Of a stretch of DNA of 32,000 bases, positions 4,401 through 11,074 are shown in pieces. Positions within the stretch are counted from its first letter, which is position 1. Each line of letters opens with the position of its first letter. Location of the stretch: positions 810,001-842,000 of the forward strand of contig NZ_CP021983.2 in assembly GCF_002075285.3 (NCBI RefSeq), written 5' to 3'. The notes under the pieces were generated by a model, which made no database searches, was not told where the DNA came from, and saw only the letters and a list, made by a program, of their open reading frames with translations. Both the position numbers and the translations under genes were made by a program. The stretch is from Halomicronema hongdechloris C2206 (GTDB taxonomy: Bacteria; Cyanobacteriota; Cyanobacteriia; Phormidesmidales; Phormidesmidaceae).

Positions 4401-6113
4401 TCAGTGTCTTGGCATCGGCCATAGCTTTTTGAATAATGTTTGCTGGCCATTGAGAAACCCTAGCAGCTGCTCCGATTCCACTGAGTCATCGGGAAACACG
4501 GTGACTAGCTCAAAATATTGCCGGGTGACCAAGGGCATGGGCTTCTTAGGGTTCTCAGGATCCTTCACCAGTCGTACTTTGGGATACATGCGGTGCCACA
4601 GCCGCCCGACATTGCCCATCTGCCCGGTAATAGACGAGCGGTAAATCGATCCTTCCGGAATGCCGACCGACGGAATCGCCTCTCGATAGGGGCCATGCAG
4701 CCATCGCACCGCTTCACAATCTTCCAGTCCGTCGGTTTCGCGTCCCCACACCTGCACCTTGTCTGGATGCCAGGCCTCTCGCCAGTTGGCATGGGTGTCG
4801 AGTTGGGGCGTCCTGGTCTGCAGCTGCATCCATTCCTTGGCCGCCTGGCGCACTTCGGCAATGAAGTCGCCTACTTTTTCTAGCTTGCGCACCCGCACAT
4901 CTCGCACTTGGGACCGCTTGCCCAGCCATTCCCAGTGGCAACCGATTAGCGGTTTGTAGCCCTGATCATAATAGTCAGGGTAAACCAGACGATGGTCAGC
5001 CCGGCGCCAGGATTTGCCAAAGCCACCGAAGACCATGGCGAAGCGGGTCAGGGCCTCGATCAGTTTAGTCAGGGCTTGCCGCTGGGGCTGAGGTAGGTCT
5101 CGGGTGAGTCGCCAGAGCAATTCTCCCTCCACGGTGTAAGTGGGCTGACTATAGGAACCTTGGCCAAAATCATCCAGCTCCAACTGGGTGTCGAGAAAGG
5201 CCATACTCAGCAAGCCCACAGTGGCTCCACCCCTAATGCCACCAAAGAGATCCTGGACCAGACCTTCAGCCTGGTCGGCATTGGTTAAGCCGCCAAAGAT
5301 ACGCAAGGCATGGCCCCGGATGGCGGCGCGAAAGACATTGGGGCGAAACTCTCCAGTGCCATCTACTAACTTGGCCGCCTGACCCTGACCTTTGAGGCGC
5401 GTGCGGTAGAGAATATCGCCGCTGCGTTGTTGAGGTTGGCCATAGCCAGCACTGACTCGGCAGCCCAGCCCCAGGGACAGCGCCGTTTCCCAGATGTGCC
5501 AGATTTGTTCCCATTCAAGGTCATCCAGGGGAGTAGTGCTGGAGATGCCGACTATCAGCTCGGGTTTATAGAGGGAGATCTGTATGAATGCCCCGCCTTC
5601 CTTATCGTTCGATTTGACCTGCCACTGCTGCTGGGGATGGACAATATCCACCAGGTTCTGAGTCCAGCGGGTGTCGGTGGGGTAGCCGCCGTGAAATCGT
5701 AAAATACCAGGGCGAAAGTCATTATTTTCTAGTTTTTCGCCGCAGTAGCGATCGCATGTCCCCAGTTTTAATTCCCCGGCCCGTTCCAATTGGTGAGCCG
5801 CCTGGCGAAATACGCCCTTCATGCTGCTGCCGGGGTAAAAGGGCCAACCCCTGGCCCCAATTACCGGACGAATCACCCCGTCGTCTTGACCGCTATTGGT
5901 AATGAAGCGCCAGCTCAGAGCATAGGGGCGGGTTTGCACGTCTTTGCCAAAATTAGGCGCATCGGGATAGGCTTTGTCGACCCATTCATCGGCCCAGCGC
6001 TCGGCATCTTGTTCCAAGGCCTTGGGAATCAGTCGCTGTACCTGGCAGCGCCCCTCCACCTGAGCCCGAAACATCAGGGGAACTTTGTTGGCGGCATCGG
6101 TGAGAGTAGACAT
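4401..6113 (-). CDS. cmr6: type III RAMP protein, apparent Cmr6-Cmr1 fusion (two RAMP domains)
   Basis: The N-terminal half has VIRPVIGARGWPFYPGSSMKGVFRQ and GLGCRVSAGYGQ (Cmr6-like). The C-terminal half has EFRPNVFRAAIRGHALRIFGGL, LFGGIRGG and FGGFGKSWRR (Cmr1-like G-rich loops). It is the last cas gene of the operon. Confidence 0.75.
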   Translation of the reverse strand: MSTLTDAANKVPLMFRAQVEGRCQVQRLIPKALEQDAERWADEWVDKAYPDAPNFGKDVQTRPYALSWRFITNSGQDDGVIRPVIGARGWPFYPGSSMKGVFRQAAHQLERAGELKLGTCDRYCGEKLENNDFRPGILRFHGGYPTDTRWTQNLVDIVHPQQQWQVKSNDKEGGAFIQISLYKPELIVGISSTTPLDDLEWEQIWHIWETALSLGLGCRVSAGYGQPQQRSGDILYRTRLKGQGQAAKLVDGTGEFRPNVFRAAIRGHALRIFGGLTNADQAEGLVQDLFGGIRGGATVGLLSMAFLDTQLELDDFGQGSYSQPTYTVEGELLWRLTRDLPQPQRQALTKLIEALTRFAMVFGGFGKSWRRADHRLVYPDYYDQGYKPLIGCHWEWLGKRSQVRDVRVRKLEKVGDFIAEVRQAAKEWMQLQTRTPQLDTHANWREAWHPDKVQVWGRETDGLEDCEAVRWLHGPYREAIPSVGIPEGSIYRSSITGQMGNVGRLWHRMYPKVRLVKDPENPKKPMPLVTRQYFELVTVFPDDSVESEQLLGFLNGQQTLFKKLWPMPRH

Positions 6114-6116
6114 GGG

Positions 6117-6344
6117 TCAATAGCGAGAGTTAAGGGATGGACTGGGGATAGAGGCCAAACTCGGCATGAAGAAAGTGGTAGGGCGGGCATTGTCTCGTTT
6201 AGAGTTTGGGCTGATGGTGATTGAGCCAAGCAATGCCAGCCGTTGCGAATAAATGATGGGCAAACCAAGCCTGTCGCATGTTGCTGAGGTGACCTGTGAT
6301 GGGGTTGTCCATCCTACTTCTCTAAAGGACATGGAGTTGCGCAT
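6117..6344 (-). CDS. possible small ORF (75 aa) exactly filling the cmr5-cmr6/1 gap
   Basis: The ATG at 6344 abuts the cmr5-like stop (6345..6347), and the stop at 6117 lies 3 nt before the cmr6/1 ATG. The sequence is S/T/P-rich and low in complexity, so coding status is doubtful. Confidence 0.2.
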   Translation of the reverse strand: MRNSMSFREVGWTTPSQVTSATCDRLGLPIIYSQRLALLGSITISPNSKRDNARPTTFFMPSLASIPSPSLNSRY

Positions 6345-9155: not shown

Positions 9156-9175
9156 AGCATTTTACGGGTGGCTGC

Positions 9176-11074
9176 TTAGGCGGCGAGTTGGGCCATGTCT
9201 GAGCGATTCAGGTGAAAGCCGACTTTGGCCAGGTTGATGACCCAGGTGTTGAAATCTCGCAGTACAAACCTATGGGTGTTAAGGCGCTGCCAGGCATCAT
9301 TAGAGCTATCGAACTCCGGCATGTATCGCTGAGGGTCACCCAAGATGCCGCTAAAGAGGCGCTTGCCGGTGTTGGGATCATCCCGGTTCCACCAGTTGGA
9401 TGGATGTCCTAATAGCTGACGATACGGACGACCAAAGTAAACCTCGATCAACCCGAGCGCTACATCAATCTGGGCGCCATGAAAGGCGTGGCGAGCTTCG
9501 AGGACAGCAATATCGTTATAGATATGGGTCCAGCCTGGATCGTTGCAGGTTGGCATTAACCCGCTTAAGTCATGGGTATCCAGAGAATCTAGATCCTGCG
9601 ATCCCGAAAAATCACCTTCCAACAGCCACCAGGGACAGACCCACTCCAAGTGATTACCGCCGTTGAACAAAATGCGAAAGGCGATGCGGTCTTTGCCGTG
9701 CCTCTTTGCCGACTTCTCTGCTTCGCGGCAATGCTGCAACACATCTCGCTGGGGCACCTTGGGAGCCGCCCACACAAACCCAACGCTCACCGTGATGGGT
9801 TTTGAGTCGTTATCAGAAGTCGGAGGAGCATTGCTCACCGCTGCCGAGGGGCGAGTCAGATCAGGATTCTCCCAAACGTGAGACTTAAAAGTACTGAACC
9901 AGTGCAGACACTCATGGGGCTGTATTTCTGCCCGTTCCCGGTAGAGCACCCCGAGAAAGTCATCGCCCCCCGCGTAAATCATGCGGCCATTGCCAGGCAG
10001 AATAGGCTCGGTTTGACCATTTCCATCCGCTTGGGGCCATTCGTTCTGGTACAGTCGTTGGCCCCACTGTCGCATTTGGCAACTAAAGTCGGTGTAATCC
10101 TCGTCGCTGTGGCAGTGATGGGCCAGATAGTTACCGGCGTTGTCGCCGTCGCCCATGAACCAGCCCGTCCAGTATTCCGGCTCTAGGGCTTGATTCGCTT
10201 TTTTATACTTGCGCTTGAGGCGATTTAAATCAGTAAACCTTTGTGGATCTAGTTCATGAGCAATGGCGGTGATGGATTGTAGCTGATCGCGATCGAGGTC
10301 ATAGTCTCTGACTTGGCTCTGGTAGTTCGTCTGGATTCTTTCAGAAAGGGCTTTGTGGGTGACTAAGCGCTTGACCAGCTCTGGAATGCTCAGTTCCTCG
10401 TCTGGATCGACGAAGGCAGCACCGTACTCAATGGCTTTCGTCTCAGGATCAGCAGGCGTGAGTCCGACGGCTTCTATGAATGCCTGACCCAGGGTTCGGC
10501 TCAGGGTGGCATAGAAGGCCTCAATTTCAGTCTTTTGCTGCTGGTAGTTGATGTCGCGGGGGCTGAGATACCCTAGCTTGGGCCAGGCGATGCCATCGGC
10601 CCCTGACAGAGTTGAGCTTTCACCCGTCCAGTTGACGCCCGTCCAGTTGCGGGAGCGTTTTTTCTCCAGCACTGCCGTTCTCGCGGCTGGGATGGAGCAT
10701 CCAGTTGCGATAAAGAACTCCCAGGCATACTTTGCCCACAGTCCCCAGGACCGTTCCCAGTAGTAGGCGTCGGATATCTTGCATTCGATCCACTGGCGGC
10801 AGGTATCTACCACACACTGCCAGGCAGAGAAGAAAGCCGTTTCAGTCTCTTCCGGCGGCACGTTACCACGAACGAGAATCAGATTCGGCATGCCCTGACG
10901 CACATTGGGCAGGGCTGGAGAGATCACAGAGCACTCTGGTTGGGCACTGCAAATCGCCCAGGATAAGAACGAGAGCAGGTAGGAGCTGCCATAGAGGTCT
11001 CGCAATTTGCGGGAGTTTTCAATAAAGCCTTGGATAGGAGCGAAGGTAATAGCCGTGTAGACGGGCTTAGACAT
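9176..11074 (-). CDS. cas10: Cas10/Cmr2 large subunit without an HD domain; cyclase palm motif intact
   Basis: The protein starts directly at the post-HD motif [29 protein letters not shown]. It has [13 protein letters not shown] and [14 protein letters not shown] (GGDD). At 632 aa it is too short to carry an N-terminal HD nuclease. Confidence 0.85.
   Translation of the reverse strand: [632 protein letters not shown]

Follow-up and report, generated by a model that had tools for sequence, protein, structure and literature searches.

The type III locus of Halomicronema hongdechloris C2206 described here is a variant of type III-B that belongs to a cyanobacterial lineage with a short Cas10, and its III-Bv layout is an arrangement that has already been catalogued. 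We propose, giving equal weight to this reading and to its failure, that it works as a cyclase-only RNA sensor whose signal goes mainly to an adjacent Cam2-like membrane protein and in which target slicing has probably been lost or much reduced.

Gene layout and subtype

The window (the whole 32-kb stretch of DNA that was analysed) contains the following features.

1217..4372, minus strand: STAND-type NTPase gene, about 661 aa, IS-split
4401..6113, minus strand: cmr6-cmr1 fusion, 570 aa; Cmr6 1-228, Cmr1 231-567
6345..6767, minus strand: cmr5 (small subunit), 140 aa; PDLC01476, 4.8e-47
6786..7835, minus strand: cmr4, 349 aa; Asn29 codon at about 7749-7751
7965..9155, minus strand: cmr3, 396 aa
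9176..11074, minus strand: cas10/cmr2, 632 aa, short HD-less lineage; PDLC02051, 1.6e-176
11387..12100, minus strand: Cam2-like membrane protein gene (Mem_02/C3a55), 237 aa; candidate cis effector
14571..15596, plus strand: cas1
15596..15871, plus strand: cas2
16073..22012, plus strand: CRISPR array, 36-nt repeat in about 78 copies, 47 of them exact

Profile searches and structure matches show that the type III-B gene set is complete (Cas10/Cmr2, Cmr3, Cmr4, Cmr5, Cmr6 and Cmr1). The Cas10 profile of the short lineage was matched in 101 of 401 sampled genomes, about a quarter of the sampled Cyanophyceae. The last subunit had been described in the initial annotation as a Cmr6-like half joined to a Cmr1-like half, and structure prediction bears this out. 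In searches with the model (pLDDT 84), residues 231-567 match Cmr1 4l6u (Z 20.0, rmsd 3.4, 258 aligned) and residues 3-228 match 3x1l_H (Z 12.7), which we take to be Cmr6.

Profile searches of the ORFs in the 32-kb window gave no match to Cas6, CARF, SAVED, Csx3, Can or NucC, in agreement with the earlier view that the window has no cas6, CARF, SAVED, Can or NucC ORF. For one of these window searches the results comprise the best 25 of 29 families, the other 4 all being weaker than 1e-6.

Cas10 has no HD domain and keeps its cyclase motifs

The start codon of Cas10 sits 9 residues ahead of the post-HD motif. No HD motif was found in the frames upstream of cas10, which rules out a frameshifted HD domain there, nor at the N-terminus of 70 aligned relatives. 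By sequence, then, the HD DNase is absent from this Cas10. The GGDD (369-372; about 9959-9970) and GDGD motifs are conserved among the same 70 relatives, and the palm residues are not degenerate in that alignment. N64, invariant in 70/70, aligns to the PN motif of P. furiosus and places Asn, not Asp, at the ATP-type acceptor site (P. furiosus N300); the equivalent of R436 is only tentatively placed. Residues diagnostic of SAM-AMP cyclases have been described (PMC10600005). SAM-AMP signalling is ruled out here by N64 and by the lack of a CorA or NrN match in the window.

Cas10 is thus a plausible cyclic oligoadenylate (cOA) cyclase using ATP, a reading that draws on the palm residues and on the cA4 effectors found beside related Cas10s. 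The initial annotation had seen a Cas10 that begins at the post-HD motif and retains GDGD and GGDD, for which target-activated DNase activity is unlikely and cOA synthesis plausible; both its observations and its reading of them hold.

Asparagine at the catalytic position of Cmr4

On the accepted view, type III signalling is switched off when Cas7 cleaves the target. By sequence alignment, the catalytic D26 of P. furiosus Cmr4 corresponds to Asn29 here, GNLN being aligned with GVVD of P. furiosus and GNVD of 9arw_C. Asn29 is also aligned with the Csm3 Asp, a residue replaced by Ala in chains 9g9a and 6mur. Asn occupies this position in all 141 of 141 short-Cas10 Cmr4s and in 117 of 118 database matches to Cmr4, Ser being present in the remaining one; among long-Cas10 Cmr4s, Synechocystis included, Asp is found in 0 of 6. 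It had been thought that Cmr4 retains its Asp-containing loop (IFRDQF), but the Asp of IFRD aligns with P. furiosus E32 and with the Asp of Csm3 VVRD, not with the catalytic Asp. In P. furiosus, Cmr4 D26N abolishes RNase activity while cOA is still made (PMC7192623). Because Asn replaces the catalytic Asp, canonical 6-nt slicing by Cmr4 has probably been lost or much reduced. A literature search, confined largely to papers outside subscription, found nothing relevant on Asn-type Cmr4.

Alternatively, slicing may have been rewired. The target RNA would then still be cleaved, either by a single cut of the Cmr6 half (D77/D78) or at regular intervals by Cmr4 through E23/E24, and this would be a self-limiting III-B cyclase of the ordinary kind, except for its unusual active site. 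In S. islandicus a slicer-dead Cmr4 proves toxic, and in wild-type P. furiosus it was unobtainable; this argues for some compensating cut, and acids are available for it. D78 of the fusion lies in the Cmr6 loop at the equivalent of the Cas7 catalytic position and is acidic (D/E) in 42/42, and E23/E24 of Cmr4 form a nearly invariant EE pair in a loop that is two residues longer. The sheer frequency of the short-Cas10 lineage (101/401) fits this as well. However, E23 aligns with P. furiosus E21, which is non-catalytic, and no computed result points to a Cmr6- or Glu-based cut. We hold rewired cutting, and the ordinary self-limiting cyclase that it implies, to be possible but doubtful. In either case, a lineage that carries this Asn and whose Cas10 profile is matched in about a quarter of the sampled Cyanophyceae genomes implies a different shut-off or a different cutting residue.

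A Cam2-like membrane protein beside cas10

The 237-aa product of the gene upstream of cas10 matches PADLOC Mem_02 (1.5e-29) and C3a55 (4.4e-21), so the initial statement that the window holds no recognisable effector went too far. The structure model (pLDDT 89) comprises one TM helix (about 37-58), a coiled coil and a REC-like domain, with REC-fold structure matches at Z 11.3. The protein thereby shows the architecture described for Cam2, an N-terminal TM helix and a C-terminal REC fold. A homotrimer prediction scored 0.31 (mark 0.42).

The gene is linked to cyclase-positive type III loci. Of 10 matches in 9 other genomes, 9 adjoin cas genes; one homologue adjoins a CHAT-SAVED gene. In three orthologous contexts the gene is flanked by cas1 and cas10 and no CARF gene was called; it fills the slot that CARF effectors hold in relatives, and it appears at four or more positions on the Cas10 tree. 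Two sets of wide-flank loci from the short-Cas10 clade, which partly overlap and consist of related loci, contain the Cam2-like gene in 3 cases vs CARF/Csx3/SAVED in 43 (set 1) and in 3 vs 11 (set 2), with both together in 0 cases in each set. In a sister clade, Csx1 and the Cam2-like gene occur together in two loci. We consider the membrane protein a candidate cis effector of the Cas10 signal.

Of the two neighbours first put forward as cis candidates, the membrane gene is thus strengthened by a catalogued match. The STAND gene fares worse. It follows the cmr6-1 stop by 28 nt in the same orientation and encodes Walker A and B motifs, as an effector in cis might, but it is split in Halomicronema hongdechloris C2206 by a 1165-bp IS at about 1939-3103 and was not found at any other Cas10 locus examined. 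Its homologues (24-29%) lie away from Cas10 in comparable genomes, and no nucleotide-sensing domain was detected in the protein. A role for it as the cis effector is highly improbable.

The signal could also act mainly in trans. The genome encodes two Csx1 (CARF-HEPN) proteins at 2.28 Mb, a TIR-SAVED at 1.49 Mb, a SAVED protein at 3.89 Mb and a Csx3-AAA at 1.489 Mb, of which only the AAA part was matched by local profiles. Genome searches with PF09651 and PF09620 gave no match here and equally none in control genomes. If Csx1 (2.28 Mb) or SAVED were the main target, the membrane protein would regulate, as a phospho-receiver might, or be a passenger. Effector-less loci are enriched where genomes hold several type III loci (PMC11229360), and D160, unchanged across 106 sequences and located at the REC phospho-site, could serve in phosphorylation or metal binding. 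Yet the Cam2-like gene has several times taken the place of CARF effectors in the same slot, and Asn215, at the REC lysine position by alignment reading, suggests a pseudo-receiver. We regard a main target in trans as unlikely. As to the messenger, cA4 has slightly better than an even chance, and cA3 a sizeable one that falls short of even.

The repeat and crRNA maturation

The 36-nt repeat (example 16381-16416) has a covarying stem 6-11/18-23, a weaker crossing helix 1-4/11-14 and a 13-nt unpaired 3' tail, the stem ending 13 nt ahead of the repeat 3' end. With its two crossing helices, the repeat is a possible pseudoknot. The structure draws its support from covariation only, since the window repeat folded as a single sequence does no better than shuffles. 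In a permissive test (G-U pairs, free registers) the signal for the crossing helix was weak, the observed value being reached in 228 of 5000 permutations; the Watson-Crick, geometry-restricted test was designed post hoc and overstates its strength. The symmetry of the repeat may also have a DNA-level cause, namely recognition by Cas1-Cas2. Rfam gave no match, nor did the array against a phage collection, and the extracted spacers had no self-targeting match. On pseudoknots in type III repeats, the same literature search, again confined largely to papers outside subscription, found nothing relevant.

The sole cas6 in the genome belongs to the I-D operon at 2.82 Mb, leaving the locus without a cognate cas6; in related loci, cas6 was found in 1/76 and 0/75 (BLAST, two queries). 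The guides may mature by the unchanged Synechocystis route, in which RNase E leaves a 13-14-nt handle, a model to which we assign somewhat less than an even chance. The genome has one rne gene, and in III-Bv repeats position -13 is A in 72/86 and position -11 is T in 82/86, fitting the predicted 13-nt handle (PMC12464536). However, RNase E favours single-stranded A(-3)/U(+2) sites (PMC8682795), whereas on the -14 side the repeats of this family are base-paired as a stem (96% of cells). The Synechocystis model is therefore not directly transferable, as its cut site is the foot of the stem in this repeat family. Applied to this repeat, the RNase E site rule points to handles of 8-9 nt. A cut at the stem base would have Cas6-like geometry, and its source could be the Cmr complex itself or the I-D Cas6.

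Proposed mechanism and implications

In the sensor model that we prefer, the complex of Cmr3, Cmr4, Cmr5, Cmr6-1 and Cas10 would load crRNAs matured without a cognate Cas6. Binding of target RNA would activate the intact palm site to make cOA from ATP. The signal would most likely reach the adjacent Cam2-like protein, as its position suggests, and activation of this protein may cause membrane damage or dormancy; further receivers would be the Csx1 and SAVED proteins encoded at other loci. Shut-off would come from target release, host RNases or ring nucleases.

The whole lineage lacks both the DNA-cutting HD domain and the usual RNA-cutting residue, and probably has mainly an alarm role. The fuller picture is of a widespread cyanobacterial III-B system that is a naturally slicer-dead, DNase-less sensing cyclase, withstands an Asp-to-Asn change in Cmr4 to which archaeal systems respond with toxicity, uses pseudoknotted, Cas6-free guides and here has a receiver-domain membrane output; that all of this holds together is rather unlikely. 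The question of the Asn-type Cmr4 is directly testable, also in Synechocystis 6803, whose Cmr4 is without the Asp. If real, a Cmr complex that by nature neither cleaves its target nor has a DNase would be of use in detecting RNA. Being compact, the locus also lends itself to tests of the Cam2 family and of guide maturation independent of Cas6.

Comparison with known systems

The subtype III-Bv CRISPR3 of Synechocystis sp. PCC 6803 (Behler 2018, as reported in PMC6546367 and PMC12464536) shares with this locus the order cas10-cmr3-cmr4-cmr5-cmr6/1, the Cmr6-Cmr1 fusion, the lack of a cognate cas6, a similar 13-nt repeat tail and a Cmr4 catalytic position without Asp. The resemblance noted initially thus stands for fusion, gene order and cas6, but the two belong to different lineages. 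Cas10 has 979 aa there and 632 aa here, with only local similarity; identity is 20% for the fusion and 25% for Cmr4; a 5' hairpin and AU-rich linker there contrast with a stem abutting the tail here; and the accessory genes differ. We tested for orthology to the long CRISPR3 Cas10 and for a 5'-hairpin repeat and found neither. The CRISPR3 counterpart in Halomicronema hongdechloris C2206 is the locus at 0.72 Mb.

The Microcystis III-B system with repeat DR4 (PMC4428289; PADLOC PDLC02051, PDLC01212) has the same repeat family and belongs to the short-Cas10 lineage. The DR4 structure comes from RNAfold only, and the passages of PMC4428289 consulted mention neither a crossing helix nor the Cmr4 Asn.

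The membrane protein shares its N-terminal TM helix, C-terminal REC domain and type III linkage with Cam2 (PMC11229360) and Mem_02/C3a55 (Shah 2019, PMC6546367). Activation of Cam2 by cOA is itself a prediction (Hoikkala 2024, PMC11229360), and its predicted messenger is cA3; the effectors found next to Cas10s of the short clade, in contrast, are cA4 effectors.

With canonical III-B Cmr complexes (P. furiosus, S. islandicus) the locus has in common the Cmr2-Cmr6 folds, the GGDD site and Cmr4 H16 and E272. It differs in having no HD domain, in the fusion of Cmr1 to Cmr6 and in a Cmr4 with Asn in place of D26, the same change as in the laboratory slicing knockout.

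Locus layout and catalogued features

The locus lies in a complete, 5.58-Mb cyanobacterial genome and is arranged as follows.

Features of the locus
Minus strand: operon of cas10 (632 aa), cmr3, cmr4, cmr5 and the 570-aa cmr6-cmr1 fusion gene
11387-12100, minus strand, as the operon: 237-aa gene, 312 nt upstream of the operon
Plus strand, beyond the 237-aa gene: cas1 and cas2, then the array with about 78 repeats

As initially annotated, Cas10 is HD-less and keeps intact palm motifs. Nine residues precede its post-HD motif, and an HD motif is missing from the N-terminus of all 70 aligned relatives. 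Residue N64 aligns to the P. furiosus Cas10 PN motif, a position occupied by Asp in SAM-AMP cyclases (PMC10600005); an ATP-only cyclase is therefore likely. Structure prediction bore out the two RAMP halves of the 570-aa protein, one Cmr6-like (3-228, Z 12.7) and one Cmr1 (231-567, Z 20.0). Profile scans of the window gave no Cas6, CARF, SAVED, Csx3, Can or NucC match, again in agreement with the annotation; the single cas6 of the genome sits within a I-D operon. The features flagged initially are already known. PADLOC models match Cas10 (1.6e-176) and the fusion (6e-219) over their full length, and Cas10 profile matches at 1e-80 occur in 101 of 401 sampled Cyanophyceae genomes, a few of them of the long type, so the layout has already been catalogued.

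Several further observations concern the surroundings. A second cmr6-1 copy (contig positions 806105-807820, locus L031), about 2.2-3.9 kb before the window, is 90% identical in DNA, has a stop at codon 423 and adjoins two Uma2 genes. Flanking the effector operon are two inverted copies of a sequence of about 111 bp (587-697 and 11273-11383, 86% identical), which has no further copy in the genome at 1e-15. Ahead of cas1 lie a 21-bp tandem repeat (13297-13642) and a gene for a 139-aa protein outside all known families (13944-14363); a 76% identical stretch occurs at the 2.29-Mb adaptation module. About 30 repeat copies in the array (16073-22012), most of them from 17150 on, depart from the consensus; many do so through single-base indels in homopolymers, and these differences are possibly long-read errors. 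Beyond it (24016-28341 and 28897-31976) are three IS transposase genes and an Mrp/Mnh antiporter operon. Many short-Cas10 loci (L037:418-4140 and about 29 other related loci) keep a four-gene block upstream of cas10, encoding NYN-like, CorA-like (model PDLC01177), unknown 161-aa and E1-like proteins, which is absent at the window locus. In loci L054, L055 and L059, cmr4-cmr5-cmr6/1 cassettes are duplicated behind a single cas10.

Asparagine at the Cmr4 catalytic position

The initial annotation cited the Asp-containing loop IFRD of Cmr4. In profile alignments, this Asp (D34) falls on P. furiosus E32, and G26-N27-L28-N29 aligns with P. furiosus Cmr4 GVVD and 9arw_C GNVD. In Csm3 the N29 column holds an Asp, for which chains 9g9a and 6mur have Ala; we read these chains as catalytic mutants. 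Together, these alignments place the catalytic position at Asn29. Asn was found here in 141/141 Cmr4s from short-Cas10 loci and in 117 of 118 parsed database matches (Ser in the other). In the six Cmr4s of long-Cas10 loci (Synechocystis CRISPR3 among them) the residue is Met or Leu; one of the six has an Asp one residue further on. As far as our searches reach, the lineage-wide Asn appears to be new.

The P. furiosus D26N complex lacks target RNase activity yet continues to make cOA, and it proved impossible to bring the mutation into the wild-type strain (PMC7192623). The equivalent mutation in S. islandicus leads to autoimmunity (PMC9368842). The simplest inference from sequence is that canonical slicing was lost in the short-Cas10 lineage, and we consider the chances evenly balanced that slicing is absent or greatly reduced. 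Tentatively, it may instead have been rewired to other residues: the Cmr4 E23/E24 pair is conserved, in a longer loop, and D78 of the Cmr6-like half, acidic in 42/42 sequences, precedes its Arg by the equivalent distance.

A Cam2-like membrane protein as candidate effector

The initial annotation recognised no cOA effector in the window, which holds for CARF and SAVED proteins, but the 237-aa protein is a candidate: it matches Mem_02 and C3a55, the latter a catalogued III-B/III-D accessory family (PMC6546367). Its model (pLDDT 89) combines a single TM helix with a long coiled coil and a domain of five strands; receiver domains make up most of that domain's best matches (Z 11.3, rmsd 2.7, 116 aligned). 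Cam2, a predicted cOA effector, has been described with this same architecture (PMC11229360). Orthologues with 61-76% identity are placed between cas1-cas2 and cas10, a slot held by Cam1 in other clade members, and the gene occurs at four or more places on the Cas10 tree. The other cis candidate proposed initially, the STAND gene, carries an IS insertion flanked by a target-site duplication. It was not found at the other Cas10 loci compared, and its distant homologues lie away from Cas10 wherever comparison was possible.

In wide-flank loci of the clade, Cam2-like and CARF/Csx3/SAVED genes never co-occur (3 vs 43, and 3 vs 11 in a second, partly overlapping set), although these are small numbers from related loci, and two sister-clade loci hold both together. 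The usual partners in the clade are Cami1 (27/76), Csx3-AAA (27) and Cam1 (14). All three read cA4. Since Cam2 is a predicted reader of cA3 (PMC11229360), the messenger may be either cA4 or cA3.

Further receivers are encoded elsewhere in the genome: two CARF-HEPN genes at a second short-Cas10 locus (2.28 Mb), two more Mem_02 (Cam2-like) genes at a long-Cas10 locus at 0.72 Mb (L033:7318-8100 and 13250-14125), a TIR-SAVED gene at 1.49 Mb and a SAVED protein at 3.89 Mb. The 1.49-Mb cluster (L138:7864-13718) comprises CARF-TM, the AAA part of Csx3-AAA and TIR-SAVED, with no full Cas10.

Repeat structure and guide handle

The array belongs to the repeat family of Microcystis DR4 (PMC4428289). In a set of 32 different repeats, pairing in a 6-bp stem (positions 6-11/18-23) reaches 96%, with 24 two-sided changes; the stem stops exactly 13 nt short of the repeat 3' end, and one subgroup has a 12-nt tail. 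Positions -13 and -11 are conserved in 86 III-Bv repeats, which suggests a 13-nt handle. Applied to the window repeat, the RNase E rule A(-3)/U(+2) (PMC8682795) would instead give an 8-9-nt handle.

A second helix joins positions 1-4 with loop 11-14, 68% paired in one fixed register, a value that none of 500 shuffles and no slid control reached. At least three Watson-Crick pairs form in 18/34 repeat types vs 5.5 expected, in a geometry-restricted test set up after the data were seen, which overstates its strength. The two helices interleave as would those of an H-type pseudoknot, a crossing that appears to be new within the reach of our searches. The second helix is missing from about 40% of repeat variants, and the crossing pairing may instead reflect alternative folds or DNA-level constraints. 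A repeat subgroup (loci L104, L281, L282 and L285) pairs its 5' end with the distal loop half in a register from which no pseudoknot could form, a hint of alternative folds.

Proposed mechanism and comparison with known systems

The complex combines an HD-less Cas10, intact palm motifs and Asn at the slicer site, lacks a cognate cas6, and is accompanied by a membrane protein of predicted Cam2-like fold in a recurrent position. We propose that target binding would trigger cOA synthesis with little or no slicing. The signal would activate the Cam2-like protein, with Csx1 and SAVED proteins as putative back-up receivers, and shut-off would proceed through other means than slicing. A related Microcystis long-Cas10 complex alone gives about 10-fold T4 protection, and about 10-fold more with Csx1 (PMC11855584); these figures, which concern protection and not cleavage, are consistent with signalling plus binding.

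The likeness to the Synechocystis III-Bv system seen initially proved limited. The CRISPR3 repeat is described as a 5' hairpin with an AU-rich linker, which RNase E cuts 13-14 nt from the end (PMC12464536). The CRISPR3 fusion protein is 20% identical to that of the window, and its 979-aa Cas10 is similar to the window Cas10 only locally, matching instead the 0.72-Mb locus of the same genome (31% over its length).
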